A stretch of 63,850 bases of DNA, counting the filler, from Phoronis australis (Eukaryota; Animalia; Phoronida), in NCBI GenBank assembly GCA_002633005.1. It is 5 parts of 5 records of this genome, joined end to end, with 100 filler letters (N's around TTAATTAATTAA, not from the genome) between each part and the next. Parts side by side here need not be neighbours in the genome. Positions count along the whole stretch, not along the records: positions 19,216 to 47,583 come from NMRA01000546.1; 4 more parts are not named here. One strand, given 5' to 3'. Every line of letters begins with the position of its first letter. The first letter of the stretch is position 1. Under the pieces are notes generated by a model. That model was given only the letters and a program-made list of their open reading frames with translations. It searched no databases and had not been told where the DNA came from. Position numbers and translations under genes: made by a program. This document shows, in pieces, positions 5,730-54,830 of the stretch.

Positions 5730-5907
5730 TGGGGTGCAAGTGCTGGGAGAAAACCTTATAAATAGAGATGCAACCTACTGGTCCAAGAACTGCAAGTTAT
5801 GCTCTTGTCACTTCGAGGAGTCCATGCTCACGAATACTCGTGTGAAACACAAGCTGGTATGGAATGCAGGGCCAACACTTGATGTCCGGAATCCACCAAA
5901 AAACTAA
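5730..5907 (+). pseudogene. C-terminal half of a second THAP domain (THAP12/hAT-associated type)
   Basis: CKCW.../YWSKNCKLCSCHFEESML...KLVWNAGPTLDVRNPP* shows CxxHF plus an AVPT-like box. Confidence 0.7.
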
Positions 5908-12304: not shown

Positions 12305-12450
12305 AGCTGGACATTTACACTATGGAACATCTTTCGATTCAAAAAGACTTGTGAATTCGCGTCTGCCAGTTTCTGAGTTTTAATGTGGATACAATCTATG
12401 GGACCTAACACATTCGGAAAACCTGCAATGATCTAATGAAATCAAAATAA
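12305..12450 (-). pseudogene. Harbinger/HARBI1-like DDE transposase remnant
   Basis: IAGFPNVLGPIDCIHIK...FLNRKMFHSVNVQ resembles the DDE_Tnp_4 signature GFP.V.G.IDCTHI...NRK.FHS.NVQ. Confidence 0.85.
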
Positions 12451-18425: not shown

Positions 18426-19115
<690 letters not shown>

Positions 19116-19215
19116 NNNNNNNNNNNNNNNNNNNNNNNNNNNNNNNNNNNNNNNNNNNNTTAATTAATTAANNNNNNNNNNNNNNNNNNNNNNNNNNNNN
19201 NNNNNNNNNNNNNNN
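19116..19215. other. Artificial contig-join spacer N44-TTAATTAATTAA-N44 (also 47584-47683, 55313-55412, 62106-62205)
   Basis: The identical 100-nt spacer containing a six-frame stop linker occurs four times. Confidence 0.98.
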
Positions 19216-19804: not shown

Positions 19805-22800
19805 AAACACTTGGAACTGGAACCACAAAGGCAGGACTGTGCTGTTGAAGTTCTACCACGTGCACTGGAAGGAACAACCGCTGATTCATCCTACCAAATT
19901 TTGCAAGCGAGTGCTGGTCCGGCTGAAAAACATGTTGGCACAGTACTCGAAAGCTTTAGCAAATCAAAAGGCAATACCAACACAGAGGGTGAAGTGCACC
20001 AAAAAGTCGAAGTAAGCGAAATTCCCTAAAAGACGACGAGTTTGTTTTTACTTGGCCAAATAAATTTCTCTAAGTAAGTTGCTTTGCCATCAATGTTGAT
20101 TTCATGGTGCTTCGACACTATTTTTCGTTCTTTTTATGCGCCAACATATTAATTTCATTTGTGCACGCATTATGCCGTCATTTCCGTCCGACGTCCGTCC
20201 GGCATCAGGAGTCCGGCGTCTGTTGCTTTGTCTCCAAAACCTTTTGAGGTATGTTCATGAAATTGTGCACGTGTTTCTTTCATGGATGGAACGGCATGAG
20301 CGAAACTTTCGGACGGTTCTGAATACCGGTGCGGAGGCTCTTTATTAAGATTAATAAGTGTATGAATATGATGTTGACAATGGACGAATACCGGTGACCA
20401 CCCTACTGGCAATTTTAGGTTTTTACACTTACGTCTGTATCTTTAAAGCTCCTAAACGTATTTTCGTAAAATTCGTCGTAGTCTGGGGCACCTATTAACA
20501 AATTTACTGTTTTTGCGTCAATTTTTTTGGCGTCCATTCCTCTACCAACCACACCGCTTTCAGGATGATTGTGTGATTGTGAAAATTGGCATGTATGTTT
20601 CTACTATGAAGAGTACGGCTTACGGTGACTTTCCGACGACTTTGGTTTCTGTGGGTCCTGCTGGTGGCAGTTTCGTTTTTTGCGCCTATGCCTGTACACT
20701 AAATCGTTTGCATTTTATTTATTATTTTTTCAAGTGTATTTATATGATACTGTCTACGGACGACGTCTCTTTTAGGAAAGATCTGACAACCACTTTGCCC
20801 CTTGTGGCAATTTTATGTTTTTGCGTTAACTATGTATCTTCAAAAGTCCTCAACGGATTTTCACAAAATTTTAAATATGAGCATAATATTGGTTAGGTGA
20901 CACTATCCTCACGTTGTCGGAAAGAACTGCTATATTTTTCGGCATGTAGTGGGCAAATTTATTGTTTTCGGGTCTGTTTTCGCAGCCATGTCTCTGTCAA
21001 CCAAGCCCCTCAGGAGATGGTTTTGAAAATTAAGGTACATCTTCTCAGTTTAATGAGGATGGCTGACAATGAGAACTTGCATACTGTGGCACCTCCTAGT
21101 GGTAGATTTGTTTTGTTTAGCGCCCAATACAGAATATTTATTTTATTTAGTAAGTGATGCCCCACAGCGACTTTCAGGCGGTTCTGAGAAATAATGTGTC
21201 CCCTAGTCGCTATTTTATTTTTTCATGTTTTCTTTTGCCTGTTTTGTAGTTTCTCGTTAGATTTTCTTTGAAATGTGGTGACAAATCTTTCTTTTTTTTT
21301 AACTTTTGCACCGTCAAGTGGCCATTTATAAAGTACAAAAACAATCATAAAAGTACACCAGTTGCGGCGCATGCGTGGCCGCATTTAAACTCTCCCACTC
21401 GCTCTTGTTTTTGTTTGTCCGGACTCCACATTGTACAGGTTGCATTTGTAGACTGATTCGTATGGAGTCTTCACAAAACCGTTAGTAGTAGTAGAAGCCT
21501 GCTGTTTTTGGTAATTTTTGAATTCAAATGGCAGACATGGCCTCCATTTTGTTTTAGAATTCAGGTTCAACTGCTCATAGAGACCGTAATTTTTGACGTA
21601 GGCAATTGAAAAATGGCACATTTAATGTTGCTAACGTGTAATTAAAGGACACTGGAAATCATTTACTTCAGGTCAAAGATAACGGAAATATCGACCGTTG
21701 CGCATGCGACCCTCAATTTTGGACAAGAATGTTTTGTCCTGTAGAATGTGCATTTCAGGACCAATTTCTTCCAAATACTTCATGTTGAAGTTTCCTGTCG
21801 GATCTCGCGCATTTTCATCCATTTTTAACCCTCCTGCCGATTTTTATGAAAAGGGTAAATGATTGGCAACAATGTACTCTCAAACTTACTGGTTTTGAGC
21901 TATTATACTTTGAATTTCAAAATATTGGAAAATTTGAAAATTTTATGGACTTTTGTTGAACTAATACATCAGATAGAATTTTGAATGTTGTTTTTCATTT
22001 TTCGCACTTTTTGAATTATTTGAGATTTTCATTTGTCTAATGATTTTGTTGCAGTTTTGGTGGTTGTTGTGTATCTTACTTTGTCAAATAAAGTAGACAC
22101 TCCATTAACTATGCAGTGAAACGAACAGAATTGAACTGAACACTGAACTGATTTATTCTACATTTCACCACAATATATATACACACAACTACATAACAAC
22201 ATATGATGGGTTACCTATGGCACACTTCCTATACTAGGAATCGCATGACATAATGCCAATTAAACTACTGAACTCATAAACAATAACAACCTACAAACAT
22301 CCTGTTATCGTGTGACTAAGTACACAACAGTGGTCTACCTTGCAATGAACAAGACTATAGCATATTTCTTGACAGCTTCTTTCGGCCTATGAATGTTATC
22401 GCATCTTCAATCATCATCACCATCGTCATCATCATCTGCATTGGGGTATTTTTTGTTAATGTCACCAAGTGTCGCTTCTCCGAACGCATGCATTTAATGT
22501 TACTTAATACAATAATACAGTTCATTATATCTCACACATGTCACCGTTCTATGGGTTCAAACATTCTACCGCCTTATCTTCTTGCTGTGTCCCATCAAAC
22601 ACTTTTTTCTATTTTGCTCCTGTTTTTTATTTGTCCATCATAAATACAAGTATATCTATGTTTCCAGCAAAATGAAACTGCTTTTGACGTTTGCGAAGGA
22701 CACCGTGGCATCGGCTATATTGAGAGAATGAAGAATATATTTGAAGTACCCAATAAATAACTGTGCAATGGTAAATAATAGGCTAATATCATCTGGTCAC

Positions 22801-24858
22801 ATTTTTATAAACTGGCGCCATCTGTTTGACAACTGATCTGCTTAAGCGTCAGTTGAAGTTTTGTTCAGTACAATAAGCAAATTCTTATTAGGACCACAGT
22901 ACCTTTTTTGTAAAATTGCTTCCAACTTGTTCTACACTTGGATGAGGAATTAATTTTGACTTCGCACGGAGCTGATCTTTTGTTGATCGACAATACCACG
23001 ATATGACTGCGTAAAATATCACGTCGTGAAAAGCTAGCTTGTAGAGCCTGGCCTTAAACCAATTACCGTCAGAGTTCTTTTGAAGCCAGTCACATTCAAA
23101 ATGTCTAAGTAACAGTTTACTCCCCAGTATGGCTGGCTGCTGTACTTCAGCGTATTTTGGTTAGCACGTTGTACTCTACGGACAGTCAGATTGAAACATA
23201 TCTGAAACACACTTCCAGAAAAACATGGAAGTGGAACAACAAAGACAAGGTTGTGGGGTTGAAGGTGTACCACCTGCCTCTGGAGGAGCGACCACGTTTT
23301 CACATGACCAAACTTTAGGTGGGAGTGCTGTTCCGACTGAGGAACAGTTTATAGCAGCAGGCCAACTTGAAGCTTTTAACAAGTCAACGGGTCTTGTGCC
23401 GATCTGACTACCACTGTGCTAATGGCTATTTGATTTTGTTTACGTTTGCTTCTGTATCTTTGTTCTTCTTGACGGATTTTACTAAAGTCGGCAACTAGGT
23501 TTCTATTTGGGGGACGACGACACTTTGTCACTGTCTGATGCATTTGCTGTTTCCGGCCTGTCCAAGTAGCTATTTTTATTTTTGAGTTCGTTTTTGTGGC
23601 CCGCTTTTCTTGGCGCCAAACTGCTCTAAGGGTAAAATTGCAATTTGATATATTTGTTCCTGTTGATAGAACTACAGTGGATGTTGATTTTCTGTAGCTG
23701 CCTACAGTTGTGCACTCAGGTAGAAAATGTATGGTTTTTCTTTTAGACATTTATGTTCGACGAATTTTAATGGAAGTTTTTTTTTATTACATTTTATTAA
23801 GGACACACACAGAGGTAATTTTACTCCAGTTGGATTCAAGGGATTGGCGCTGCCTATTGATCATGTTTACGATTTCGAGTCTCCATTTTGACATCCGACT
23901 CTCTAGCCGCCAAACCGGCTTAAGGGTCGTTAGAAACATTGCAGGAGACACGTCCCAGCTTTTATTACGATAGATGGCGTTGGTTTTCGAATGGGCTTTT
24001 TGCTGTGACACTCCTTATTGCCACCATTATTGTTTATTGAAAATCTATGGCCTTAGTGTTTTCATATCAACGTTACAACAGATAATCACGACATTTGCAA
24101 CGATTTGACCAAGGTTGTGCTGCCCAGTGGGAACTTTTTATTTATCGTTTGCCTCTGTATCATGATGCGCTCTTTACTTCTTTCATGACATTTGGTAAAC
24201 ATGTTTCTATTATAGTGACATTAGCGCCATTCTACCCTCGCGGCCAAATTCATTATTCTTAAGTCATCATGTTTCCTATTCTTCATCTCGGGATCATTGT
24301 GAAAGTCGGCACCTGTATGTGATCTGATTGATCAGAGCATGACTGTCAGCACCCTCTGTTGGAATTGGTTACATCTGCAGCTGCATCTCGATAACTCCTT
24401 GCAGCACCATTGTAAGATCTGTCAAGTGTATTCCATTGCCTTTTGAAGGTGATGACTATTTCTTTCGGAACATTAAGCCTGTCACAGCGACACCTATTAT
24501 CAATATGTATTTTACGTTCATCACTTTCTCTTTGGAGATTTTCTTGCGGATTTTCATGAAATTCGGCTACTAGCGGTCTATTTACAGTATCAACAGCTGG
24601 TTCTATTTTTGAACGTTTTGTTACATTCTATGCCATCTATCTGTCTTTCATAATAATAAAGATCCCTTAAAGCATATATATAGAATGCAGACGATGGGCT
24701 TCATTCAACGTTTCACATTGCTCTTGTTTGTATATTAAAGAATTCATGCGAAAAAGAGGAAAACAGAGATAGGTGCAACAGCGCTCAATCCACCAACGAT
24801 GCGAAAGTACCTACTGTTTATCCTGATGTGGAAGAATTTGACGACATGGAGGGTCAAT
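19805..24858 (+). CDS. Probable upstream exons of the caspase gene (19805-20011, 23219-23390, ~24691-24858) encoding a low-complexity, disordered N-terminal region
   Basis: TTCCAG acceptors precede 19805 and 23219, GTAAGC donors lie at 20012 and 24859, and the phases can be chained (0-0, 0-1, 1-1) into the 25865 exon. The donor at 23391 (GTCTTG) and the acceptor near 24691 are weak. Confidence 0.5.
20130..21220 (+). mobile_element. Helentron-associated (HINE/DINE-like) interspersed repeat, probable
   Basis: Begins in a T-run (tttttatgcgcc) followed by a CCGT/GTCC microsatellite (ccgtccgacgtccgtccgg) and degenerate internal repeats of 'tcatgaaatt/gtgaaaattgg/ttcacaaaatt' type. A similar start occurs at ~30280-30480. 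Confidence 0.45.
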
Positions 24859-24921
24859 GTAAGCGCTGTTTAGTAAATAAATATGTTTAAAGTCTCTATT
24901 GATGGTTGTACATGGCCTGCT

Positions 24922-25030
24922 GCTGTCGTGGGTGTCAAGGCTCACCATGGCATTGTTATCAATTGGATTGTCGTGGGTGAGCCTCGGGCCATGGCATTGT
25001 TATCAATAGGGCTGTCGTGGGTGTCAAAGC
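24922..25030 (+). repeat. Short ~44-bp tandem repeat, ~2.5 copies
   Basis: tgtcgtgggtg occurs three times and ccatggcattgttatcaat twice. Confidence 0.75.
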
Positions 25031-25864
25031 TTAATGGGAATAGTGTTGTCTCAGAACACCAAAAGGTACACCTGTAGTACTCAGATATGGTGGGTTTTTG
25101 TACACCCTGTGACCAGAGCTGTCGCTTATTATGACAGTGGTGACTAATTAAACATGGCATTACCTGGTCAAAACCGTTGTGGTTGGTGACGTAATGCGAT
25201 GTAATTAATGTTCAATTCACAAACAGAAATATTCAACAACTGATCTTCATATACATGTACACCGACTTTCATTAATCGGTGCACTTCTGTAGTAATAACA
25301 ACGTAGTTAATGCTACTGCTAAGTTATTATTATGATCATTTCTGATCACGCTACTCCTGTATCAATTGATGATTTTAAAAGGTAAACAAGATTATGTTCA
25401 ATAATCCATGTAAACATCTAAATTTCCGGATGTGGAGCAAAGTCTGTGAACTTTAAAGTTTTCTTATTAAAATATTGTGGACACTTTGTGACTCGCACAT
25501 TCATTTCAAAACAAAAACGACGTTTAGTTCATTATGCATGCTCCTATCATTGGAAGTTTCCTTCAATCAGTTGTCAACGATCCTATTTTTGTGGACCAAT
25601 TCACACAGCGCCATCTTCTCGTGCACGTGTCAGTGCACTTCATCAGATATTGCGTAACCGAATTCTCTTTTACTTTGCCATCTTGTCAAGTTCACCTGTT
25701 GTCTTAACATTTGCACTTGTAGTCCATTTAGACAAAATCGTGTGGCCAGATGGAAATAAAGTTGTCAACATTGATATCTCACTCTGTCGGTTAAATCATC
25801 GCCTGCTCAAAACATTCCGCTCAGAGTACATGTGCGCGCTATATTATTATGTAAAACATTTTAG

Positions 25865-28800
25865 GGACAACAGGACCATCTCACAATGTTCATGACGTCA
25901 TTGGCGTAAAAGTGAAGGCTCCGGACAACTGTATTGTCAAAGTCAGATATCAAAGCTTTTCAAGAATCATTCAAGACAAGTTCAATGAAGGTGAAGTCGT
26001 CATTCACCCACAGAACGTTTGTGTAAATCAAAATAATAGCCCAGAATTGTTGCAACCCTGCGACATTCGAATAAATGTGGAGTGGACACTAAAACAAATA
26101 CCTCAAGGGAGTCGTAGTCGTGGTAGTTTTCATGTTTTATTGACCGATCGTGATCAAGTGGATGATATCACAAACCAGTGTAACCCTCGCTTGGACGAAA
26201 ACGAGTTGATAATCACCTCTCGTGAGAAAGGTGAGCACTCAGCGGTATGGTGCCAACCTCAGAGAATCGGTGTAGTTATTTCCCTTATTCAAAACACGTT
26301 CAACTGCAGGTTGTGCTCTGTTGTTACACGTGAAGAGACAGGTATGAAATTCCAAGTAGTAATCCATGCTCAAAACGTAGTGTGCAGTGGTGAGTTCAGC
26401 CACAAGTGTGATAGCGATGCCCCGATGACAATGGTTGACGGAACTGAAATTAAGGTTATTGCGGAATTCTTGGACACAAAATCATCAAGAGTGGATCTTG
26501 GTTGCCTCAAAATCGACAAGAATTTGTGCGAAGGAACCGGAATATTGCATGAAAAATTTCAAGATGGATCAGGAAGTACCGATGGTTCAGCTAGTAGCAT
26601 TTTAATCGGAATGAACTTCTACTACAAAGAACAACGCATCAAGAGTCAGATAGTGAAGGTAAGCATACCACCACGTGTTTGTAACCTGACAGTATTCAAC
26701 ACTATGACATTGATAATGTGTGTAACTAGGTTTATGTAAGCGTGCTTTTGTAAACCGTAATGAGCGTATAACCATGACATTTATCTTGAGTAATTCGTAA
26801 ATGGTAGTGTATACGTTTGGTAGTACACTTTGAGTTCGGAGTTCAATGTGTGGTGTATACGTTTGGTAGTACACTTGGAGTTCCGAGTTCAATGTGTAGT
26901 GTATACGTTTGGTAGTACACTTGGAGCTCCTAGTTCAATGTGTACTTCATACGTTTGGTTGTACACTTGCAGCTCCGAGTTCAATGTGTGGTGTATACGT
27001 TTGGTAGTACACTTGGAGTTCCGAGTTCAATGTGTAGTGTATACGTTTGGTAGTACACTTGGAGTTCCGATTTCAATATGTAGTGTATACGTTTGGTAGT
27101 ACACTTGGAGTTACGAGTTCAATGTGAAGTGTATACGTTTGGTAGTACACTTGGAGTTCCGATTTCAATATGTAGTGTATACGTTTGGTAGTACACTTGG
27201 AGTTACGAGTTCAATGTGAAGTGTATACGTTTGGTAGTACACTTGGAGTTCCGATTTCAATATGTAGTGTATACGTTTGGTAGTACACTTGGAGTTACGA
27301 GTTCAATGTGAAGTGTATACGTTTGGTAGTACACTTGGAGTTCCGATTTCAATATGTAGTGTATACGTTTGGTAGTACACTTGGAGTTACGAGTTCAATG
27401 TGAAGTGTATACGTTTGGTAGTACACTTGGAGTTCCGATTTCAATATGTAGTGTATACGTTTGGTAGTACACTTGGAGTTACGAGTTCAATGTGAAGTGT
27501 ATACGTTTGGTAGTACACTTGGAGTTCCGATTTCAATATGTAGTGTATACGTTTGGTAGTACACTTGGAGTTACGAGTTCAATGTGAAGTGTATACGTTT
27601 GGTAGTACACTTGGAGTTCCGATTTCAATATGTAGTGTATACGTTTGGTAGTACACTTGGAGTTACGAGTTCAATGTGAAGTGTATACGTTTGGTAGTAC
27701 ACTTGGAGTTCCGATTTCAATATGTAGTGTATACGTTTGGTAGTACACTTGGAGTTACGAGTTCAATGTGAAGTGTATACGTTTGGTAGTACACTTGGAG
27801 TTCCGATTTCAATATGTAGTGTATACGTTTGGTAGTACACTTGGAGTTACGAGTTCAATGTGAAGTGTATACGTTTGGTAGTACACTTGGAGTTCCGAGT
27901 TCAATATGTGGTGTATACGTTTGGTGGTACACTTGGAGTTCCGAGCTCAATATGTGGTGTATACGTTTTTATGTACATGTCAACCGATACGGGAACTAAG
28001 TTTTGTTACGTATTTTGCCGATTCTATTCGAAAACGTTAGCATAACTTGGAGCTCTGTTTTCGATATAGAGTTCATACATGTATATGTAGATGTATTTGT
28101 ACATGTAGATATCAACCAATACGGGTATATTTTGCCGATTCTGTAATGCTATGGCGTAGCGCCAAAATAGGCATTTCCCAATGTTCATAATAAAGTTTTT
28201 GAACCTTCGCTTAGGCTTTTGCTGGCAGTTTTGTTTGTCGAAATAATCTAATATTACTAGTTTTGCTCTACATAGCCAATGGAGTAACCAAAGAAACACA
28301 CACAGAAAGTATATCTACAGTAAGAGCCTCTAATAGGCAAGTAGGTACACACAGTGTATATTTGGCTTAGTTTTCGTCAGTGTTATGGTTTGTTATGTTT
28401 TTTATGGTTAGAGCAAAATATGGTTGACATGCATGGAAGAATTACGGCTTTTTTATGTGTTATTTTAGGCTGTGCATTGATAGCGTAGCAGTGCTTGTTT
28501 GTGGTCCGCTGTTTCCCAATATTCGTTCATGTTACACATGTAGGTAAAGATTGATAAACGTCGTTGTGTTATACTGCAATGCGCGCATTTTAGTTGAGTT
28601 CTTGTTTATATTATCGGAGAACCCCTGTTTGTGCACAAACTTATTGAAGATATCGCTGTAATTATTCATATAATTGCAAGTCAGGCTCATTCATAAACCC
28701 AACTATCCACAGCAATTCTATATATATATATATATATATATGTGCACGTCATGTTCATTCATAAACGCATTATCCCCACCAATTCTTTATGTAAGTGCAC

Positions 28801-31800
28801 GTGATAATCTTTGTCCGATATACAACACATTTTCCACGCTGCCTAAGGGGAAAACGGACAACTGAAGATGATGTCAGTCACAGGAAAATGAAGTAATCCG
28901 GGGTAATATTGCCTTATTGTTTGTGGCAGGTTAACATTAGAATCATGCTTCACCTTCCCAATAAAGTGTGTGGTGAGAAAAGTGACAGTTCGTGAAGTAT
29001 GTTTGAATGCCAGTGAATGACATAACAATTCTGTACTGACGATTAATGTTACCTTTTTTGCATTCCTTAGCTTGAAACGGTAACTTCAACTCCGTCCGTT
29101 GATTTGCATGGCCGCCATCAAGACGACCAAGAGGTCATTGGTCGAGGTCACAAGCCACAAGAGCACACGAGGAAACGCCAGGTAAATTGGTGTTTAACAT
29201 AAATATCGAAGTCAATTTCACCCAATAATGCACCAAGTTGGGACACGCCACCCTAGGTGGAAATCCTTAATATTAGGCATCCCGTCGTGTGTTGTCACCT
29301 ATTACCCACAACTGACCTCCAATTGCTCTTAATCGAGTAGGGTTTCCATCGTCATCCTAATTTCCATGTTCACACAGCCCTTAGAAGTAGAACTCTTAGC
29401 ACTGCCATGACCACGGTATGGTTCTTCAACCAATGTACATGTATTTATATAGTACGCACTCTATATAAAGTTTTGTCTGAATAAGTCCATTAGTGAGACG
29501 TGTAACATTTTAAACGACTGCTTTATAGCACAGATAATCGTGTGTATTCAGCTTTGACTTCTCATTTCGCGTTCGACTCGTCAACTGCAATAGCTTATGT
29601 ATTTCGCCCAGTAAAATTCACCTATGCGACTCTTTAAACATCACATGCATGCTCCAGCTGTCGTGAACGAAGTCGAAACGAGAGTTACATCCGAAAAACA
29701 AAGTTTTTAAACAACGCTTTAGATCATGTCTTTTCATCCGGTTACCAATCTCTAAGGTGGGGGGCATATTCATTTTACTGAGTGGATAGATGTATCTTTA
29801 TCAATGATGCTGGTAATTGACCCGCTGTGTTATGTTGCACATTTGTGTAAAAAAAGCTTTTAATCACGCTCTCACATTGTATGACTAGTTGGCAAAAGGC
29901 GGCGCTGTGTATTGCATTTTCATCCAATCAAAACGTTGGACATTGGGAAAGTACGCGATGTTGTATTGGTTACAGATGTGAATTGGGAAAAATAAGCATT
30001 GTACTGCTGGAACTATACAGAGTTTCAGATAGCTGTTAAAAACGTGGCAAGCATCAACAAATGTTTTTATTTTAAAAATTTATTACCTTACTTGCTCATG
30101 TTATGACGTAATTTAGGTTTAAAATTTCTGGTCGTTTTTTCAAGTTTGCATACCTTGGAATGATCTGTAATAAATATTTGTAAAGTGGCCTCAGTCCCAA
30201 GATTGTTGTCAATCAAGTTTCAGTACATTAAACGCACTCTTACTGTACATTTTATGCTCACACATATACGCTTGTGGGTGCATACTGCCGTGATTTCGGT
30301 CCGGTCCGTCCGCTGCAGCTGTAAACGCCTTGTGGGATTTTAACTTGGTGAGATATCTCCCTGTGAAGCTGACGACACCTGTAGGCGAGTTGTGGACCAA
30401 TCTGATTACTGCTTTGCTCCTTAGTTGTCATTCATATTACATTCAAGTACTTTCCTAACTGTTCTGGGACCATCATGAAAGTTGACAGGAGTGTTGTTGC
30501 TGACAAGAGCTTGAATCGTGTTGATTCCCGTATGGTTAGAACCTTCATGGTGCCCCCCATGACATTTTTGATTCTGTGACTGTAGTTTCTAATCCCCTTA
30601 CACTATTTTTGTAAAATCCAATTCCCAAAATTAGCCACATTCAAAATTGAAAGCTCATGAAATTTGCACGAGTTAGTATCAACAAAGTTACGTTGTGCTT
30701 TTATGTAAAGCAATAGTTTGTGATGTGATAGATATATGTTCAAAACACAACTGCATCTCTTAAATTAACAGACGTGGTTTTATAAGCCCCCTCTCCCAGA
30801 TTCTATATTTCTTTACAGACCATTGAAGGCCGAGCAACTGAGGCGGTTGGTAAGTTCATGAGGTCTCACACCACTGCTATAAATAACCTTTTTTCGCGAC
30901 CTGGTAAAATGCCATTTTTCACTGAAGGTTTGTCGTGCAATTCATTCAAAGCACCTGTTTACCACGCTTTGCATGTAGAGCTCAGAAATTTCCCAACCCC
31001 GTGTACAAAGTTTAGTTGTTTCGGTGACTTTTTCCCGCTGTGCCGTTGTAGGGAAAGGGAAAGAATAGACATGTGCAATTGTGTCAAAGTGTGACTAGTT
31101 CCAGAGAGGCAGTACACTGGGGCAGGAAGTAGTGTGACTATCAACCATTTTGAATGTCTATACACCAGTCTGTGAAAGGATCAAGCACAAATTCCTCCTT
31201 CGCTCCCATAATGAAAGTTACACTTTTCAAGCAGCTTGTATGTGGAATTCCAGTTGAAAATTGCAGGGAAATGGTAGATGGGTATCCTTCTCAAACTCGT
31301 AATCTTTGCTCATTTTTCTGGTACAACTTTGCTTTTATGCTGGTACTGTTGAATACACGCTCTGCCTTGATCCATGGAATGACCCTAAATCAAAGCAAAA
31401 TTACTGACCACCCAGTGTATGCCTTCATTAGACACGCAATGCGCTGCAATTGCATCCCATAGCGCGAACATGTAACACCCTCATGTTTTTTAGTAATTCA
31501 CACAATCATGTGTGTATCTTTTATGTTAAAGGTATGTATCCCAGAACCGGTAAAGGTCTGGTTGTCCTTGTCAACAACATTAATTTTGATGCTGAAACAG
31601 ATGATGACAGAGAAAGGCAAAGAAGACACGGTATGGTTTTGCTGTTAGCACTTTGTTTCAAAAATTTCAGTTGCTATAGCGGAAAATGAATGACATGTGT
31701 TAACGATAAATGGCGACATACATGTAGAACGGCTGTCAAGAACAAATTTATTAAGGTCACTTGGAGTTCTGAAACAGGTCTCAAATTGATTGCAAATTCA

Positions 31801-34800
31801 GGGTTTCGAAACAACGACCACTAGTGTAGTTTATTTCAATGCACTTCGAACCATCCCAGAACTTAAAATTCGAAGCCATGATGTCACTTGGAATTAAATT
31901 AGTTGTTTTGGAGAAGAAACGAATTTTCAGTACTTTGGGAGCCCTGAAATTTACCTCTAAACTGAGTGAAGAACAAGATAGACTCAATCCTGCAACTAGA
32001 CATGGTCCAAACCCAAACGTGTTTTTAAGACAATGTACTGGTTTAATGCCACTTGGAGAGATGATTATTCCCAAAACTTTGTTGATTACAGCAGTTGTCA
32101 AAGCAACACACTTTCACGTTTTGTATCTGACAACAACAACATACCTTTGCTTCTGACGGTACAGATGCTAGTAAGCGTGAGATATGTTAAAGAGTTTCAA
32201 ATCTCAAACTATTGTTGAAAACAGACCGAATATTCTTGTGTTAAATTTAGGCTTCAAAAATCTTGCAGGTTCCGAAAAAGATGAAAAAATTTTGCTGGAA
32301 ACGTTTAAAAGATATTCAGCACGATACGACGTTTTGTGTGGCAATGACTTCAACAAGGAAAAAATGGAACTCAGACTTAAGTTCGTGCAAATGAAACTCA
32401 AAACCGAAACATATAATCAACTCATCTTCTTCGTACTCTCACATGGTGAAAAGGTGAGTATTATTGACCACTACAACTGTACAGTAATTCAGGTTCATGT
32501 ACATCCGTAATGTCGTGAACACATCTACTACCACAAGAAACTGTAGGAACACCGCATTTATCCACCTTCACTCTTATCAGGCTTCTGTTGTGAGTCAGCA
32601 TGTGTGAAAAATTGGCTGATAAGCCACCTCTGGAACTACTTTTGGCTGAATGGATGACCAGGCCATAAAATTATAATAAGCCAAGACCAGTTAACTAATG
32701 CAACAAAGAATAATGTCGTAGCATCACCTAGCCTTGGTGGAAAGCTGTATACTGTCTTGGCTCTAATAAACGCTTAGAAAACTTCATTTCACAGGGAGGG
32801 GACGCTTATTGTAGCCTAAGGCAGTTGAAACCCGGTTTCCGAAACGGGTAAAATCGGAAGCTAGGATTCATCAAATGTACGCTCTGTGACGTATTTGTAG
32901 CCTATGACAGTCTTTCTACAAAGTTGTGGTGCATTGCTATCAAACTTCGTTGTTGAATTACGATCATTTTTCAAAAAATTGTGCTCATCCCAGGGCGAAA
33001 ACTTGCCGAGTGATACGTCGCTGAATCGCGATGGTCAATAGGAAAACTGAATTCTTGAATAAAAATATAGTTTCGACTCAACAAATTACCTGAAATCTTC
33101 TTTATGTTTTACAATTTTTAAAGTTCATGTGGAGTCCAGATTAATTGCGATTAAGTCCAAATCTGCGCTACATCGTACCCCACCCACAGCACGAGAAAAA
33201 TCTCTGGATGAACACACATGTTGTTGTCACGTGACGTTTGTTTTGAAGTTCGTCTGCGTATGAGAGTGAGCGTGCGAGTGCGGGTCATCGACGACAGACT
33301 TTTTTGTTACAAAAGGCGGGGGATTATGAAAGAAAATGGAGTTTACTAGATTGTTTTTCACTTAAACGGCTGCAACGTGCAACGTGAGTGCTGGTTAACT
33401 CACAGATTTTGCGTGCACAGGCCAACGGTTGTTACACATGTAGCTCTACCGTGGAGTAAAACATTTTAATGTAGATCAAGACTTGGACTGTTAAAACAGT
33501 CCAAGTCTTGATCTACATGTTGGGGACGAGCTGACGAGGTGAACTACCCGGGCTGTGTGGAATTTCTGGGCCTAACGGAGACACTGACGCAGTGGTCAGT
33601 TAGCTAGCTCGCTGTATCAAGACTATTATCAAAATCCAAATTCGTTTTATCGTGTCCCTGTCAATAATAACGGCATGCCAAAGTTTCTTAATGATCGTGC
33701 TTCAGGAACATAACAATCACGTGTTTTGTACACATACGCGCACGCCGCAGATCACATCTCGGAAATTTCCGATTTGATGAATGACATTGAATGAGCACAA
33801 TGAAATTAAACAACGTCGTTTTAGAGCTTGTAACATTCATAATAAACGTATTTTGAATATTGCAATGCATGTGTTCCAAAATCTAAGTAACCTGGGTTCT
33901 ATATTTTTGTATTCGTGCGCGCCGAATGAAAGTAATCGTGAGTGTTGCTGTGTTGCAAAATCTCTTATCCTGGGCCAGTTTGAAAAATTCAAAGTTGTAC
34001 TCATATTTGTTTTCGCTCCGCCTTTCAAATATTACAGTAAAAACTACGTAAAACTCTCTCCATCAAAAGTACAGTCTGCTAGGGTAGATTGTAATCAGCT
34101 GATAATATCCGCATGAGCGAAGCCAATTATCCTCGCTCGTGACTCGATGAATAGAGCATCTTGGGGGCATCCCTTTGATCGTGAGCCGTTAATAAAGTAG
34201 AAGCGTCTTTTGAATTTCGAAAAACTGACAGTTTTACGAACGAAATTCTCAAAGTCGAGCGATGTGTATTCCAATTCCAACTTATGTTACACTAATTAAT
34301 TACACGTACTATTGCATTTTACTCGTACATGTACCAGGCATGCATTATGTCTGTGTAGGTCAAAACATTGATATCAGAGTCAACAAGTCAATACTGGACA
34401 CCAACGTTATTTCGTTTACTGCGAAACGCTGTAGTAATATACCTTTAAATATTTCTGAATGAACCTAATTAAATATCCAGTCACTGAAATGGTTGCCTAT
34501 CCCAAAGCAATTAAATTATATGTACATGTATTTAGGACTGTTAAACTTGGAATTCCAAATGCGAAGTGGGGTAAATCATGGATGTTTTCATACAAAATAG
34601 GCCTTTTGAAATCGACATGCAATAGTAAAATTGGTTTATTGTTAAGCTTGCTCTTATTCGTGAGACTGTCCCAAGTAGCCTGTATAAGTAAACAGTTAAC
34701 AAATGGTTTATATGGTCCGGACTGAGAAGGTCATTGATGTACAGTGTATTACTCCCTGTGAGTTTTGGATAGCCAAGCCTGGAATGAATGTTGTTCAGCG

Positions 34801-36632
34801 ACACTGGAAAATAAGTTTCATGCTTGTTGTCAAAGGCACATTTGTTATTTTTTAAACGTGTGTAGAGTACAGGTGCATGAATATATTAATGTAACACATG
34901 AGGGCAAAAGATTTAACATTATTCACAGGATGGCATCGTAACAACTGATGGACATCTACTGCCATTTGGAGACATATGTAAATACTTCCGGGGGGATGAA
35001 GTACAAAGAATGAGTGGTACGTACATTATCGGTTATTTACTCAGCTCCTGAAACTCAAATTATGAAACCCCACACACAGTGTGTCATTTTCTTTATTTTT
35101 TCAGACTTTTTATCTAGCAAAATTATGAAGCACTCTCATCGCAAGTTTAACAGGGCGTGATAAACAACTGTTTTCATTCACATTTGGACATCTGGGTATT
35201 TGGCAACCTAAGGAGTGCTAGAATACTCTTGGTTCCAAAGTGTGCATGAACGCTCAAATCACAGGTCATTCTATTGGTGGGATGTAGTTGCTATAGTGAC
35301 CTGAAACCAGTGTATAATCTAGAAAAGTGCCCTCTTTCTGGATTTCAATGTTTAGCCTGCTAACATGATTTGGTCGTAAGGTTTGAAGTTGCTTTACAGT
35401 GTTTTGTGCATGTTTATTTCAGAATCCCCGAAGATGTTTGTATATCAGTCTTGCCGTGTCACAGGCCGGAAGAGACCATACACTGCTGCATGTATTGACA
35501 ACAGAGACGCAACAAGCGACTATGTTATGGATCAGCCGCCTGTTGCTCATGTGCTCACGGCATACGCCACGACTGATGGTAAACTGTTTAAAACACTTTT
35601 GAAAATCAGCTGTAATCAGTGAGGTCGGCAATTGTGAACTGCTTAGTTTATCAATGTGAAGATGATTCAAGCCCCGCACACTTTGTCGTGAATGTGAGAG
35701 GGGACGGCAAACCCACAAATAAATGCGTTTTGATCTTGGGAAAGACTTTGAGTGTACACCCCCTGATGATTTTGGTGGTGTCGCTCTATATCAGCGGGCA
35801 TCACGTGACTCTTAGTAAAAGAGCCACATATTAGCTGACATACATGTACGATGTCAACCTCTTCTGGAAACAAATTATTTGTGGTCTCATGAGTGCAGAG
35901 GTGTGTTTGCACTGGCGTACCACGGGGAATCATGCACTGGCGTAGCACGTGGAGTTGTGTATGCAATGGCGTACCACGGGGAAGTGTGTATGACGGCACC
36001 ATTCCCTCTTCATTGCAAACAAGTCATCCCTTCAATTGAAAAATTGTAATTTTTTTGTTTTGCTTTTCTCCAACGTTCATTGCAAGTACCTAGACTGACC
36101 TCAAATGTTAGCACTTTCTCCCCCACATCTTTGAAATGTGATTGCGAATTTGGCAACATTGATGACAGCCATTCTTCAAAAATTTCCTTTAAGTCTTTGT
36201 TTGTGTTGTCATGGAAATTTGCGTTTATTTTTATAACAGGTGGTTTCACTTGTCAGTTCACTTGATATCATTGGCTGACTAGTTAACGTTAATGGTGTGC
36301 TTGTTTTGTTTGTATGAATTTGAATAGCTTCACTGTTTTCATTTACAGGTAACTATGCATTACGACACCCTGGTGAAGGGTCTCCTTACATCAAGACCCT
36401 ATGTAAAGTAATTAAACAGCACTGCTCAGATCATCACCTAGAAGACCTGCTGAAGATAGTCAATTACAAACTGTCTAAAATGAGCTTTGTTATCGATGAG
36501 CGACAAGCTTTTCAAATGCCAGAATACAAATCCAGTTTAACACAACACATGTTCATCCACAATGAACATAAAAATCTCACAGATTCGTGTCGTGTGTTCA
36601 CTTGTCCACGTTGTAAACTGGAGTTCACATGA
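25865..36632 (+). CDS. Caspase (peptidase C14A) gene, spliced. Well-supported exons: 25865-26658, 29071-29181, 30819-30849, 31532-31630, 32269-32453, 34929-35016, 35423-35578, 36349-36632 (stop TGA)
   Basis: All introns are GT-AG and the phases join into one open frame. Translation shows caspase motifs in order: GMYPRTGKGLVVLVNNINF...RHG-SEKD, LIFFVLSHG (catalytic His), PKMFVYQSCRV (catalytic Cys, 35446-35460), VLTAYATTDG-NYALR...GSPYIKTLC...HLEDLL...QMPEYKSSLT. The start codon was not determined. Confidence 0.9.
26807..27968 (+). repeat. 46-bp minisatellite, 25 full units plus a partial unit, inside a caspase intron
   Basis: Unit gtgtatacgtttggtagtacacttggagtt(c/a)cga(g/t)ttcaat(g/a)tg(t/a)a. 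Unit starts at 26807, 26853 ... 27957, in exact multiples of 46. Confidence 0.97.
33290..33640. mobile_element. Interspersed repeat with a related copy at ~62440-62840
   Basis: ttcacttaaacggctg...cagattttgc...gaactacccgggctgtgtggaattt matches the reverse complement of 62611-62790. Confidence 0.75.
33469..33518. repeat. Perfect palindrome with 24-bp arms and a 2-nt loop
   Basis: atgtagatcaagacttggactgtt-aa-aacagtccaagtcttgatctacat. Confidence 0.95.
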
Positions 36633-37785
36633 ACTGTTGGTGTTCCCACCAGTTGCTGCATATTAACTTTGTTTCAGGGGAGTTAATTTGTACTGCGATG
36701 TGTTCTACATGTTTGTAAGATAGTTGCGGAAGCGCCACGTGATTACGTAGTTAGTATACGTCACCAGTGTCCACCCCCCTATTGCGTAATAACTAAAGTG
36801 CATCAAGGTGGTGGGAGTGTAGATCAAAGGTCACTTGTACTTTTAGTAAAACATAGACAGAGATAGCGTAACTTCGTATCTTAGTTTACAAAACAGCAAC
36901 ATTGCGTGGGGTCGTTTGTACCTGCCAGTATCTCTATGAAGTTCACTAGTGTCTCTAAGAAATGAATCAAGCCGATAAAAGTCATTCTCACATCAAAGCC
37001 AAGCGTTTACTACCAGTGTGCCATTTCAGTTTCTTGCGCGTTTCAGTGAAAAACGCTTATTACTGATAAGGCTCGCGGGCTGTCAGTAAAATGTTATAAA
37101 CAAGGCAAAGCTATAGCTTACTTTTCGCTAAATTTGCAATAGTCCATCTTACCAGAGAACAATTTTTAGTTAACTTGTTTTGTACTCTATATCTATTACT
37201 TTTAATTACGTTCGTTACAATAAGTGACCTTGTATCGACAACCTTGGTCTCCTTTTCATCCATAACGTACACTGTTGGTGACAGAATCTCAGAGGTTACA
37301 GGGATTATAAACTCATGACACTCGCTTTTATCAGCGATTGCAATAACTTATTACCCGTTAGGGCAGTGGGGGCTGTAAACTACGCCTGGTCAAGCAAAAG
37401 AACTTAACACCATCACGTAATGTGTATAAGAGTGAAAGGCATGTTACCGGCCAAACAAATGTTTCGGGTTTTCTCAGGAATTTCCAACAACCCGAAAATG
37501 GGGGAGGCTTTTCGGGTCGGTCCATCACGACCTAAACGCGATAATGTGTTGTAAACAAGCTTACTACGCACGTATCATATATGATTTGGACATATTTCAA
37601 TCATACTTAATGCCAAAATGAAGATAAGATATTAAGAAATGATTTCGCCCATCAAGCCGCAAATGCGAAGGTAATGTGACGACACTTAAAAAGGTTGATT
37701 AAAGGGTAATGAGCACCCCCTCCCAGGGCCACAAACAAAATAATAAAACACCGTCGTCACATGGAGACCGTACACCTGCAACTCC

Positions 37786-40820: not shown

Positions 40821-42339
40821 CCATAAAACAAGTGCCGGCTTTTTAACATAAATTTTTTTCGGTTACTGAGTTGAGACCCGATCAATCCGCTGAAATATGA
40901 TAAAGTGTTGATATTTTGCAAAATAATAATTTTGCTTAGATGAATGAATGATTGATGTTTTGACTTCAGCTCTAAATATTCATTGCATCAAGATTCAGGT
41001 TAGACCATCAACAGACTTTGAACGATTTTGCTTCAAAGCACAGATCGTAGTGGTATTGCCTGGCGTAATGCAGTAATATCAATGGCTGTACCAGTAAATC
41101 GACTTTATCTGTACTTTATTGCTCAACCTCGCTACTTAATTTCAGTTTGTGTTCTTGAAAACATGCCTGGACCCCTACACTGTCAACTTGGACAGCATAC
41201 ATCTGAAAGAATGGTGTAAAGGCGGTAACATTATCTGTACGCTTTAGTGTTTTTGACCTTAGTGTGCTATAAGCGATCACCTAACGCATGCGCAATCTGA
41301 CCATTCGTCACAGCCTTCTTTTTTCTGTCCTGTTTGCAACCGAAATTAATTATTCATTTGCCTTACTTAGAGTTAGACTCCGTCCATTCTTACAACCGAA
41401 ATATGCAACCATGCAATAGGCACACGGGATTTGGTATATTTCACTACTGGCCAACATCAGCTGATTGTTTATCTAATTGTCCAACGACTGAAGTAGAGCC
41501 AAACTTGTGTTCATGGTGAGCGCGACAAACACTTTTTACTTTGCGATTACAAAAACGATCACGATGAAGCTCTCTTCTGATTAACTTTTCAAGAAAGATG
41601 CCACACCGTCGGTAGTACCCTTTTCTCTACGGCGCAATCTGCTTTATCTTCTTGTATGTGTGGTCGGACCCCTTTCTTCGACATCCTAGATTCGCCACAG
41701 TTGACTCTATGCAAATACAATGTATCCAATCATGAAACAAAAAGAGGCCTACATGTTTTTGAATCAGGCTTTGCTATTTCAATACACTATTAAAATTCAA
41801 TGCTAAAGTTGATACGGTGGGCATTGGACGCCTACTTACCACTACAGCACTGTTTAGACCAGTTACAGTGCCTCGTGGAGATTTGGGTCTGTATATTTAT
41901 TGTACTGGCCATTTCTTAATAAACATTAAAATCTTTTTCTTCAGACCACATTCTATTGCACAAATAAATCTTAAACTCCAGCTGCCCGAATTTTGCAAGC
42001 CGCTTTTGTCTTTGATATCTGATGTAAAAGAGTAGGAATACCCGCACTCGAAAAATAGAATATTGATTTTCGACAAAAGATGTCACTGCTGCATACTTGA
42101 TTAGCGCGTTGACATCATCCCACTACTAGACACCACTGTATTAGTATCTTCAAGTGACCACACTCTCTCCAGAGTATTATGTCACTGTATAACAATGAAG
42201 ATCAACAAAAACGAGAACAACTATAACAGGTTAAAATGATATATATATACATAGTGAACGTCACTTCAGAGGTCGGTTAACATAGCTAGATCGTTAGATG
42301 ATACAAGTCAGTAAGCGGGTGCCCAAAATGGAGTCACCC

Positions 42340-43790
42340 ATCTATGATACTTCAGAAAGGCAGATAGCTTGCTGACAAAGATATGAAGAGAAGGGAAAGA
42401 TGTAATGCAGCCTAGCAAGTTATTCCAGTCCGTGGCTGTTCTACTAAGGAAAAATGTCTTTTTCCTGTAATCTTTCCTATTTATTGGAATATTATGACTG
42501 GATGACCTTCTGGTACAAATGCCTAGATAGTAAGATCTGGGATAAGGACAACTACATCAGAGTTGATGATTACCGACTTCTTACCATACTGTATTTGTAA
42601 AGAATTTTCAGCCCACAGATTTTGAGTCTGTGGCTCCGGCTGAGGGTGGGCCAGTTTAATGTTTCTAACATTGAACAGAGGATAGACGATTGAACCGTCT
42701 CGTGACCCAGCGAACAGCTATCCTCAGTACTTTCTCTACAGCTGCAATGTCTCTTTGGGTATAAGTATCCTAAACAGTAGAGGCGTACTCCAAGGTGGGT
42801 CGAACCATTGTTTTATACGCAAACTCTTTACATCGTTGGCTGCTTATACGCAAGTTTCGCCGAAGAAAGCCCAGAGTTTTATTTGCTTTCTTCTGGATGT
42901 TGCTTATGTGGGATGACCATATGAGGTCATGCGAGATGGTAACGCCCAAATATTTAACCTCCTTGACCGACTTTGGCGTGTGATTGTGAAGTACATAGGA
43001 GGTGGGCTGGATTTGGCGTTTTCTGGTCAGGGTGAGGGCACTACACTTGTCTGGGTGGAAAGCCATGAGCCACTTGTCATCCCACAGAGCAAGACTATCT
43101 CAATCTTTCTGCAGGGCCTCTCTGTCAGCGGCTGAGTTGGCAATGTTGGAGCATATTGTATCGTCTGCAAATAGTCTAGTTTTACCAGACAGGTCAGGGG
43201 GAATATCATTTATGTATAATAGAAACAAGCAGGTGCCTAATACTGAGCCTTGGGGTATCCCAGAATCCACAGGTATACTTGACGACTTTTTGCCTCTGTC
43301 AACCGCAGTCTGTTGTCGTCCAGTTATAAAACTTGCGATCCAGTTATTAATAGCACCTGATATACCGTGTCAGTTTAATTTGTGAATCAGTAAAGAGTGG
43401 TTTACATTATCGAAGGCTTTACAAAAATCCATTATGAGAGCATCAACACTATTACCTTTCTCAACGTGCTCACTAATCTCACTAATGAAGCCCAACAGTT
43501 GGGTTTCACAAGGCAATTTTGAACGTAATCCATGTTGTTCCGGACATGTTATTTGAGACACAAATTGCTCTAAAATCGTGTGAACAATTATGTCTTCAAG
43601 CATTTTACACACTATACGGGTTAGTGATATCGGTCTGTAGTTCTCAGGTAAGTTTTTTTATCCTTCTTTGAAAACAGGGATTACGTTTGAATGTCTCCAG
43701 TCAGACGGGACAATGCCAGCTCTAAGTGATGATTCCTTATGAGGATCACAGGTGGAGCCAGTGGCACTGCATTGCTTTTAAGAATGATTG
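42340..43790 (-). mobile_element. Degenerate LINE reverse-transcriptase fragment
   Basis: NYRPISL, DFCKAFD, PQGSVLG, LFADD (~43160), WLMAFHPDKC, KYLGVTI, KANKTLGFLRRNL and VRPTLEYAS are present, with stops and frameshifts. Confidence 0.92.
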
Positions 43791-43849
43791 AGTGGATGTT
43801 ATATATATTCATCTATTTTTCAACATTTAAGGCCTTGGCCGACATGTTA

Positions 43850-46800: not shown

Positions 46801-47570
46801 ATTTCTACACCATTCTTTTCAATTTGATTTCCATACACTGTTGCACCCTCTGGTGGCAAGTAAACACAACAGGATAATACGATCCTTTTCAGTACACAAT
46901 AGACTAATTACTAATTAATAGAAAAATATCAAAATCGAAATCACAGTTGACTCTAGTTACAGACCGAGGTAAAGATTTTTTTACAAACACACAAACTCCA
47001 CCGGAGTTTCTACCAAACTTCTTTTTCTTTAAATTAACTTTACTGAACATTCGTTGTACACAGGCAAAAAGTTATCAAACAGATTTTCGTTCGTTGCCCA
47101 AGATTCCACAACTCCAAATCAAAAGAACATAAGTAATCAACAATACTTTTGTTCTCTGTTTTGTTACTTAATCCGTGTTCATTCCAGACTGTTGTACGTA
47201 TTTCGCGGGTCCTTGAAGGCTCAGCCTGTGGCCGGCCGGGGCCGAGGGCCACTGAAACTGCTAAGCATTCCTGTAGATATATCTTGCTTGACCATTTTCA
47301 CTGCAATACAGCTTGCTGAATTGTATAGTTGCATTCTCCATATTGTTTTCGTTTGAAAACGTGTACAGCTCTCTTCCGGCTTTTCTTACTTTTATCGAAA
47401 AATCTTCAGAGATGTGAACATGAAGTGGTCCATTGGTTATTTCTTTTGCTCATAACTTTGTGTTTGTCCTTCGACGAAAACTTGGAAATTATTGGTCTTT
47501 TTTATTACGCTGTTGATGACCAATCCTATGGATGGATGTTATCAGGACATAGACTTGCTGGGAATTAGAT
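43850..47570 (-). mobile_element. Near-complete but decayed LINE (end of ORF1, APE endonuclease and RT of ORF2)
   Basis: VWNEHGL (start of EN), VYLPPEG, LIAGD, SDHFPL, KASGVDG, DFSPAFD, LLYAD(H)D, KYLG and QRHGFGLVWYNQGVG occur across multiple broken ORFs. Confidence 0.92.
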
Positions 47571-54606: not shown

Positions 54607-54830
54607 TCAGGCCATCAATTCAGCGTACATATCTCTGTCGTAATCTGACGGCTGAAAATGCTTGCCACTGCTTTGAACGTTGCGTGAACGAGTAGCGCTG
54701 CGTTCTTTACACGAACGAGCTAGCCAAGTACGGCGAAGTGTGTCATCCTTCGGAAAGCGATGCACTGAGGGTACCCAAAGCGCGTGTGAGACGATAATGA
54801 GTACGCCTGGTACGCAGCACTGAACAGCGT
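54607..54830 (-). pseudogene. Degenerate THAP domain (THAP9/P-element-like)
   Basis: QCCVPG...SVHRFPKDDTLRRTWL...GKHFQPSDYDRDMYAELM; the second and third Cys are lost. Confidence 0.75.

Follow-up and report, generated by a model that had tools for sequence, protein, structure and literature searches.

Structure and expression of the locus

The window analysed here, a stretch of 63,850 nucleotides (filler included) from the Phoronis australis assembly GCA_002633005.1, carries an expressed, spliced animal caspase gene with a long prodomain. Stranded RNA reads that bear the same species label as the genome, and are 82-99% alike to the window, support a chain of nine plus-strand exons (24741-36632) that forms a single frame of 620 codons whose 5' end is open:

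24741..24858, + strand: acidic linker exon of 39 codons (exon C), immediately 5' of the large exon (joint 24858-25865)
25865..26658, + strand: large exon, encoding a beta-rich domain of 264 residues that is likely to be a degenerate ZU5-UPA module (RNA joints, open frame; fold putative)
29071..29181, + strand: linker exon, 111 nt, left out of some transcripts (joints 26658-29071, 29181-30819 and 26658-30819)
30819..30849, + strand: linker exon, 31 nt (RNA joints)
31532..31630, + strand: caspase exon 1, start of the large subunit (RNA joints, open frame)
32269..32453, + strand: caspase exon 2 (acceptor fixed by 13 reads; PF00656, E 2e-5)
34929..35013, + strand: caspase exon 3 (loose read ends and a joint)
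35423..35578, + strand: caspase exon 4, with the intersubunit linker containing DNRD (PF00656, E 0.014)
36349..36632, + strand: caspase exon 5, with the small subunit (ALRH), a Cys-rich tail and the stop codon (PF00656, E 5.8e-12; contig 36350-36926 without gaps)

The joint into the large exon (24858-25865) was seen in 26 RNA reads, and the first link from that exon to the caspase, 26658-29071, is thin, with two reads and one contig. The remaining joints are supported by nine reads and a contig (29181-30819), six reads and a contig (30849-31532), 13 reads (31630-32269), 47 loose read ends that match the next exon (32453-34929), a contig and one read (35013-35423), and a contig only (35578-36349). 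A first-pass annotation of the sequence had proposed that the large exon is spliced in frame through two linker exons to a complete caspase. The RNA joints support this chain, with reads and a contig at each of the three joints 3' of the large exon that had been put forward for checking.

Judged from its sequence, the caspase is intact-looking, with the His-Cys dyad and the substrate pocket retained. PF00656 (large plus small subunits) matches three exons in Pfam, two of them above cut-off, and the small subunit aligns to caspase-2/3/7 at E 2e-4 to 1e-2 in a PDB search; no relative of the last caspase exon was found among 13 candidates. The RNA-supported frame keeps both predicted catalytic residues, the His at 32442-32444 (LSHG) and the Cys at 35452-35454 (QSCRV, which differs from QACxG at two places). 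It also keeps the Arg/Gln/Arg of the Asp-binding pocket in RRHGSEKD, which spans the joint at caspase exon 2, in the Q of QSCRV and in ALRH, which lies in the aligned small subunit; the first Arg is placed by caspase numbering. An alternative acceptor at 32251, which would imply loss of the pocket Arg, was overturned by the RNA joint 31630-32269.

Upstream exons and alternative transcripts

Further exons lie 5' of this chain, and a candidate additional ending lies within it:

19805..20011, + strand: repeat exon B1, a low-complexity exon of 69 codons in phase 0-0; no exon was recognised further upstream (AG..GT, in frame)
22668..22745, + strand: short exon A, lying between repeat exons (26 codons in phase 0-0; RNA joints)
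23219..23390, + strand: repeat exon B2 (RNA reads; DNA similarity to repeat exon B1)
30850..31094, + strand: apparent intron read-through, 80 more in-frame codons and then a stop; candidate caspase-less ending

Repeat exon B1 has 73% DNA identity to 23189-23346. Similarity to the 3' end of this exon is also seen in 13 loose read ends that precede 24741. Joints at short exon A include 22742-23216 (7 reads), 22736-23244 (10 reads) and a back-joint, 23344-22665 (17 reads), which points to tandem A-B units in the transcripts. Reads contain a 3' part of repeat exon B2 that the window copy lacks, and in this copy the donor at 23318, which the transcripts use, does not keep the frame. The low-complexity repeat exons ahead of the large exon encode 190 residues or more, which are likely disordered, and the 5' end and start codon are out of view.

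The commoner exit from the large exon is the joint 26658-30819 (12 reads versus 2 for 26658-29071), and reads with this joint appear to continue into the following intron. Sense read depth is 4.4 and 2.5 at 30850-31179 versus about 0 in other introns, 13 loose read ends lie at 30859, and an open frame at 30786-31091 covers the apparent read-through. The joint and read-through together seem to yield a caspase-less form, so that the caspase may not be part of every transcript.

Initiator caspases are normally recruited via death-fold domains. One possibility is that the gene encodes an ordinary initiator caspase of this kind, with a CARD, DED or DD beyond the assembly gap and the module as an internal insert, or that the large exon and the caspase belong mostly to separate transcripts. 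The lack of a start codon in view, the N gap at 19116-19215 and the commoner exit joint would be consistent with such an arrangement, but a scan of the 105 upstream plus-strand frames of at least 45 residues found no death-fold match at E 0.05, the distance from the protease to any such domain would exceed 500 residues, and each link from the large exon to the caspase has a contig and reads. We consider both versions improbable. With more exons upstream, the first-pass statement that the module stands "instead of" a CARD or DED is unproven; its fusion of large exon and caspase is supported by the RNA, and it did not include the repeat exons further upstream or the apparent isoform without a caspase.

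Composition and homologue searches of the large exon

The large exon is 794 nt long with AG..GT borders and falls within a stop-free frame of 294 codons, the window's longest (the runner-up among 6957 frames examined has 185). Both insertion sites in it among read copies are in frame (3 and 12 nt) and, among the differences listed (17; 40 of 193 rows), 8 of 15 changed codons are synonymous, which together point to coding constraint. Its V/I/T fraction is 0.24, versus 0.12-0.19 in the upstream exons and caspase, and no death-fold family in Pfam matches it, in agreement with its earlier description as beta-rich and unlike a death fold.

Searches with the large exon returned no ZU5, UPA or FIIND match in Pfam (whole or as seven sub-stretches) or the PDB, and no match in NCBIfam. 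Among 1.84 billion protein representatives there was no true relative; the sole match, a 7264-residue bacterial repeat protein, is spurious and reflects summed weak repeats. None of 574 candidates among longer proteins matched at E 0.01, nor did any of 165 proteins near its length at E 10. Metagenome, genome and viral contigs gave no match, and the single matches in the phage and plasmid searches (E 6-8) are attributable to chance. The ESM Atlas twice gave no usable match, a blank that shows neither absence nor novelty.

The top unbiased matches were to galectins, namely PF00337 at E 0.12 (residues 84-167) and human galectin-7 at E 0.018 and 0.0086, centred on NPRLD. Residues ~56-203 might form a divergent galectin-like carbohydrate domain, which would make the protein a glycan-sensing caspase. 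We find this very doubtful, and galectin membership was rejected: the 12.3 bits for PF00337 fall under the family cut-off of 22.1, galectin-7 entries are the only galectins among the matches listed, a read copy has NTRWN where the window has the sugar-motif candidate NPRLD, and 55 residues before and 60 after the region would be left unexplained.

Comparison with ZU5-UPA modules

A degenerate ZU5-UPA module is the likely identity of the large exon, and its predicted parts are as follows:

25867..26256, + strand: first half, residues 1-130, candidate for a ZU5-like domain (scored by global alignment with bacterial ZU5 domains)
26233..26277, + strand: predicted ZU5/UPA junction, EHSAVWCQPQRIGVV, without an HF/S or SF/S self-cleavage motif
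26257..26658, + strand: second half, residues 131-264, UPA-like candidate (size and motif order)

In global alignment with bacterial ZU5 domains, the score of the first half is equalled by 11 of 500 shuffles (p ~0.02, z 2.1), and the signal peaks at this half, the best of 25 windows along the protein; in a separate shuffle test, 4 of 200 shuffles reach the score. The real sequence scores -27.6, the reversed sequence -30.1 and the shuffle mean is -35.4, and since the reversed sequence lies above the shuffle mean, strand periodicity accounts for part of the signal. The EGE and DIT motifs of the large exon follow the order in ankyrin ZU5 alignments, and the motif order of both halves presumably tracks the CARD8 FIIND up to the exon end. 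The exon is as long as a ZU5 plus a UPA, with 264 residues versus 273 for CARD8 162-434 (PMC3210808), and the peptides flanking the CARD8 cut site (PMC3210808) were placed by eye on LDENELIITS and QRIGVVIS, with ~10 extra residues between them.

HMM and hhalign comparisons of the large exon with 32, 29 and 85 bacterial ZU5 domains gave shuffle-level scores. The 85-sequence ZU5 profile misses the large exon; CARD8 and NLRP1 chains are likewise absent from the matches listed for it, and the miss thus leaves room for a copy of FIIND-level divergence. The second half had no UPA match in Pfam or the PDB, a profile of two rows failed to reach into any UPA, and bacterial genomes held no FIIND or UPA-FIIND member above cut-off (0/301 and 0/201).

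A single-sequence AF2 model of the large exon had a pLDDT of 30, and its Foldseek search was uninformative. In a second AF2 run, 85 rows of bacterial ZU5 sequence were used to steer the first half, and the second half, left free of rows, was meant as an independent read-out. The mean pLDDT of this steered model is 47, with the second half below 45, and Foldseek gave no match at E 0.001. The fold check suggested in the first-pass annotation (Pfam, and AF2 with Foldseek) thus returned no ZU5, UPA or FIIND match, and that annotation's ZU5-UPA assignment stands as the most likely call on motif order and the alignment peak, not as the outcome of a threshold-passing search or confident model. In VIA, the steered model aligned with AnkB (Z 4.7, rmsd 5.3, 112 aligned), ankyrin-1 (Z 4.3, rmsd 4.5, 109 aligned) and CARD8 (Z 4.0, rmsd 4.8, 109 aligned), and these ZU5 structures tie with unrelated sandwiches (cohesins, pilins) at Z 4-5. 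The VIA matches are not support for a ZU5, since the ZU5 rows imposed the fold on the model.

An alternative is that the large exon encodes an unrelated, lineage-specific pair of beta-sandwiches, or a family absent from the libraries, that serves as a ligand-binding prodomain and resembles ZU5 through strand periodicity. The negative threshold-based searches, the fairly high score of the reversed sequence and the tie with cohesins and pilins are in keeping with this explanation, whereas the ordered motif agreement with ankyrin ZU5 domains, the position-specific alignment peak and the exon length argue against it. We regard it as somewhat unlikely.

The predicted junction and self-cleavage

If the large exon is a degenerate ZU5-UPA module, does it cleave itself? 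FIIND/PIDD-type autoproteolysis needs SF/S or HF/S, with a buried Phe and a nucleophilic Ser at the end of the ZU5 (PMC3210808). This motif is absent from the predicted junction in all three registers tried, and the only SFS of the large exon is at residues 29-31. The register E-H-S places a His at the Phe anchor, a substitution that cripples CARD8 cleavage (PMC3210808); the MAFFT register, H-S-A, is without a nucleophile; and the register set by the CARD8 peptides reads Q-P-Q. CARD8-type release is thus unlikely, contrary to the initial proposal that autoproteolysis frees a UPA-caspase fragment.

In that proposal the protein would be a CARD8-like sensor in a single chain, with UPA oligomerisation activating the freed fragment and no adaptor needed. 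The layout of low-complexity N-terminus, module and effector does mirror CARD8, whose N-terminus is low-complexity and disordered (PMC3210808), the UPA lowers the assembly threshold of CARD8 and NLRP1 ~100-fold (PMC7794386), and a Ser and a His are still near the junction (EHS). With all three registers unsuitable and the ZU5-UPA fold itself putative, we give self-cleavage little credence.

Possible mechanism and relation to known systems

Our preferred reading, held tentatively and at slightly under an even chance, is a caspase whose degenerate, non-cleaving ZU5-UPA-like prodomain module would provide the protease with both docking and self-restraint. A ZU5-UPA-like module without a self-cutting site suggests a one-protein switch that would depend on docking or on self-restraint, and not on cutting itself. 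The supramodules of UNC5B and ankyrin-B, which do not cleave, keep their own death domain inhibited (PMC9162469). By analogy, the module may fold back on the caspase or tether it, and caspase domains could be brought together when a partner binds or when the Asp-rich linkers are cut. Once together, these would process themselves, and the death-fold adaptor step would be replaced. The apparent caspase-less transcript may supply a module-only decoy that tunes the caspase.

To judge by how its N-terminal exons vary and recur in tandem, and by how the read copies diverge from one another, the gene may have a lineage-specific function in immunity. A more far-reaching and unlikely possibility is that the protein is a single-chain, CARD8-like tripwire that combines a hypervariable repeat bait, a FIIND-type ZU5-UPA past self-cleavage, and its own caspase, under the control of a module-only decoy that arises from an alternative ending of the gene. 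If that is the case, an inflammasome would have collapsed into one invertebrate polypeptide.

As in CARD8 and NLRP1, a low-complexity N-terminus is followed by a ~270-residue module and then a caspase-related output, and the motif order looks similar by eye. CARD8 and NLRP1 carry a CARD, whereas here the caspase itself is fused in its place; the SF/S site and profile match are absent, and the module lies within one exon. In UNC5B and ankyrin-B, a ZU5-UPA that does not cleave itself holds a C-terminal death effector in check (PMC9162469), as the module here may do, but their effector is a death domain rather than a protease. The large exon is also far more divergent than canonical ZU5 domains, which ZU5 profiles (A1/A2) find at E 1e-9 to 1e-21. 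The PIDDosome (PIDD1-RAIDD-caspase-2) likewise has a ZU5-UPA upstream of caspase activation, and the small subunit described here aligns well with caspase-2; the P. australis arrangement differs in being one polypeptide in which no LRR, second ZU5, death domain or HF/S was recognised.

Other invertebrate fusions set a non-death-fold domain directly on a caspase as a signalling shortcut, including the amphioxus TNFR-caspases and LRR-caspases (PMC2575513) and the oyster DSRM-caspases (PMC7836458). In comparison with the available portions of those reports, which mention no ZU5 or UPA with a caspase, the fused domain here is new. A literature search of partial coverage gave no description of a ZU5/UPA/FIIND-caspase fusion.

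Even with another fold, the locus is an expressed caspase gene whose 264-residue domain lacks any detectable relative among 1.8 billion protein representatives; its N-terminus is repetitive and variable, and it seems to produce a decoy isoform. If the ZU5-UPA assignment is true, the gene would offer a natural way to ask whether oligomerisation of the UPA type can by itself activate the protease, and would show a role for ZU5-UPA modules before, or apart from, self-cleavage.

Results

Exon chain and RNA support

Nine exons between 24741 and 36632 form a single 620-codon frame that is open at its 5' end. The large exon, encoding a 264-residue domain, is preceded by AG and followed by GT and sits in the window's longest stop-free frame (294 codons vs 185 for the next; 6957 frames). 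RNA evidence came from a contig set and from three runs of stranded RNA reads, all with the same species label as the window; since these sequences are only 82-99% alike to it, they represent close alleles or paralogues, not the window's haplotype.

Exons of the caspase gene and RNA support for their joints
25865-26658 (+): large exon, 794 nt
29071-29181 and 30819-30849: linker exons
31532-36632 (+): caspase exons
Joint 24858-25865: 26 reads
Joint 26658-29071: 2 reads and contig
Joint 29181-30819: 9 reads and contig
Joint 30849-31532: 6 reads and contig
Joint 31630-32269: 13 reads
Joint after 32454: 47 loose ends, matching the next exon
Last two introns of the caspase: contig support, with a further read for one

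The first-pass annotation had proposed that the large exon is spliced in frame to a caspase domain through three junctions (26658-29071, 29181-30819 and 30849-31532), and the RNA bears this out, with reads and a contig at each. Both linker exons lie together with the first caspase exon on one contig of 364 nt, and the large exon is linked to the catalytic exons joint by joint, no single RNA record being shown to reach from the one to the others. Compared with its RNA copies, the large exon keeps the frame at both insertion sites, and 8 of its 15 changed codons are synonymous (17 differences among those listed). The His exon has one of nine synonymous (12 of 13 listed differences, one contig-only difference being excluded), a low share that fits mixed paralogues or fast evolution. 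A non-canonical joint, 26443-29053 (run X1), occurs in one contig and one read, and may stem from a paralogue whose module is shortened. Directly 3' of the large exon lies a 46-nt minisatellite (26800-27968; 25.4 copies, 91% matches).

Twelve reads join 26658 straight to 30819, their aligned side (41-43 letters) reaching beyond the 31-nt exon. The intron after 30849 is the sole one with sense depth (2.5-4.4), and 13 loose ends fall at 30859. These short reads suggest a form that would continue 80 codons to a stop, without the caspase.

Caspase domain

By membership, the protein is a caspase. PF00656 matches three exons, and the small subunit aligns with caspase-2, -3 and -7. The catalytic His (LSHG), Cys (QSCRV) and pocket residues are all present, the first pocket Arg being placed by what we take to be caspase numbering. 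Candidate Asp sites include DNRD between the subunits and others on both sides of the module. Oyster caspases have variant pentapeptides such as QSCRG, according to portions of PMC7836458. The C-terminal tail (36576-36632, +), covered by a contig without gaps, is Cys/His-rich (HNEH...DSCRVFTCPRCKLEF) and possibly a zinc site.

Upstream exons and the rest of the window

The caspase frame extends upstream through exon 24741-24858 and then tandem low-complexity units. Neither this extension nor the caspase-less form figures in the first-pass annotation.

Low-complexity units
22668-22745 with 23219-about 23390 (+): tandem unit
19805-20011 (+): unit

Seventeen reads carry a back-joint from the end of one repeat unit to the beginning of the next, and the copies in reads are longer than the final unit in the window. 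Repeat exon A (22668-22745, +) ends in IERMKNIFE, repeated in transcripts, which we assume is reminiscent of short actin-binding motifs. The start codon lies outside the view, and the 5' end of the gene may be hidden by the N gap at 19116-19215 or lie beyond it; four similar gaps occur, each of 44 N, 12 bases and 44 N. The domain had been described as replacing a CARD or DED. None of 105 upstream plus-strand frames of 45 residues or more matched a death-fold family (E 0.05), but the 5' end is beyond view, so the replacement is unproven.

The window is animal DNA (GC 39.5%) with THAP, reverse-transcriptase and DDE remnants (broken RVT_1, THAP fragments and a DDE fragment at 42300-46900 (-), 5722-5904, 7844-8161, 54610-54978, 62897-63187 and 12172-12432), and no gene besides the caspase was recognised in it. 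An AG..GT exon directly before the N gap (18637-18760, +) has a phase incompatible with the caspase frame. We presume that its translation resembles TENT4/PAPD5-PAPD7 poly(A) polymerases; it had no Pfam, NCBIfam or PDB match, and no companion exon of such a gene was recognised.

Identity of the 264-residue domain

No search (Pfam, PDB, NCBIfam, protein representatives, ESM Atlas) matched the domain to ZU5, UPA or FIIND, and no relatives were found among protein, metagenome, genome and viral-contig sequences. Galectins, the best weak matches (Pfam E 0.12; galectin-7 E 0.018), fell below the cut-off and were limited to one motif, which differs in a read copy.

For a targeted test, profiles were built from 85 bacterial ZU5 domains. 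These recover ankyrin, ZO-1 and UNC5B (E 1e-9 to 1e-21) and list no CARD8 or NLRP1 chain among their matches, and thus detect canonical ZU5 only; they did not detect the large exon. The mean global alignment score to the bacterial domains peaks at the first half (residues 1-130; z 2.1, best of 25 windows), a score reached by 11 of 500 shuffles (against 43 of the 85), with the reversed-sequence control intermediate; this peak lends weak, alignment-based support to ZU5. By eye, EGE and DIT follow the order of ankyrin ZU5 alignments. We also take GVKVK, YQSF, MKFQV, VDGTEIKV, LKI and the final VK, from both halves, to follow the order of the CARD8 FIIND. Two CARD8 peptides flanking the cut site, given in part of PMC3210808, can be placed by eye on LDENELIITS and QRIGVVIS, and the length of 264 fits CARD8 162-434 (273 residues; same source).

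Folding from the single sequence gave pLDDT 30. When ZU5 rows were imposed, parts of the first half reached 60-82 and the second half stayed below 45, and structure matches of this steered model (Z 4-5) were level with unrelated folds. The first-half peak and the motif order lean towards the proposed ZU5-UPA identity, but searches gave no hit and folding did not decide it. We consider ZU5-UPA ancestry somewhat better than an even bet, and the prodomain probably ZU5-UPA-like in origin.

In bacterial phylum sample G001, ZU5 (PF00791) occurs in 49 of 301 genomes, vs 3/201, 3/251 and 7/301 in three others; an HF[SGT] motif is kept in one column in 20 of the first 32 bacterial ZU5 domains.

Discussion

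The gene is real and expressed, and it encodes a caspase whose prodomain is undescribed. Direct sensor-caspase fusions, joined as here, are reported in excerpts of two papers: TNFR-caspase and LRR-caspase in amphioxus (PMC2575513) and DSRM-caspase in oyster (PMC7836458). In marine invertebrates, FIIND and ZU5-UPA occur in reshuffled combinations with other immune domains (PMC8195603, in part), and in sponges they have expanded (PMC3482391, in part). The literature searched, a partial coverage with supplementary architecture tables outside it, gave no description of a ZU5/UPA/FIIND-caspase fusion, and the accessible text of PMC3417536 and PMC11508797 holds nothing on one.

Could the module release the caspase by self-cleavage, as first suggested? 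According to sections of PMC3210808, self-cleavage of CARD8, NLRP1 and PIDD1 depends on an SF|S or HF|S motif whose Phe is buried and whose Ser acts as the nucleophile, and replacing this Phe by His cripples the cleavage of CARD8. The predicted junction of the two halves reads EHSAVWCQPQRIGVV, and none of three possible registers fits: E-H-S (His at the Phe site), H-S-A (from MAFFT) or Q-P-Q. This makes the release mechanism unlikely, and by membership the module is not a FIIND autoprotease.

Beyond the gene structure, we infer the mechanism that follows. Non-cleaving ZU5-UPA modules of UNC5B and ankyrin-B keep their own death domain inactive (PMC9162469, in part), and UPA favours oligomerisation (PMC7794386, in part); the best reading is therefore that the large exon would encode a docking and self-restraint module controlling its own caspase, and the caspase-less form may be a module-only decoy.
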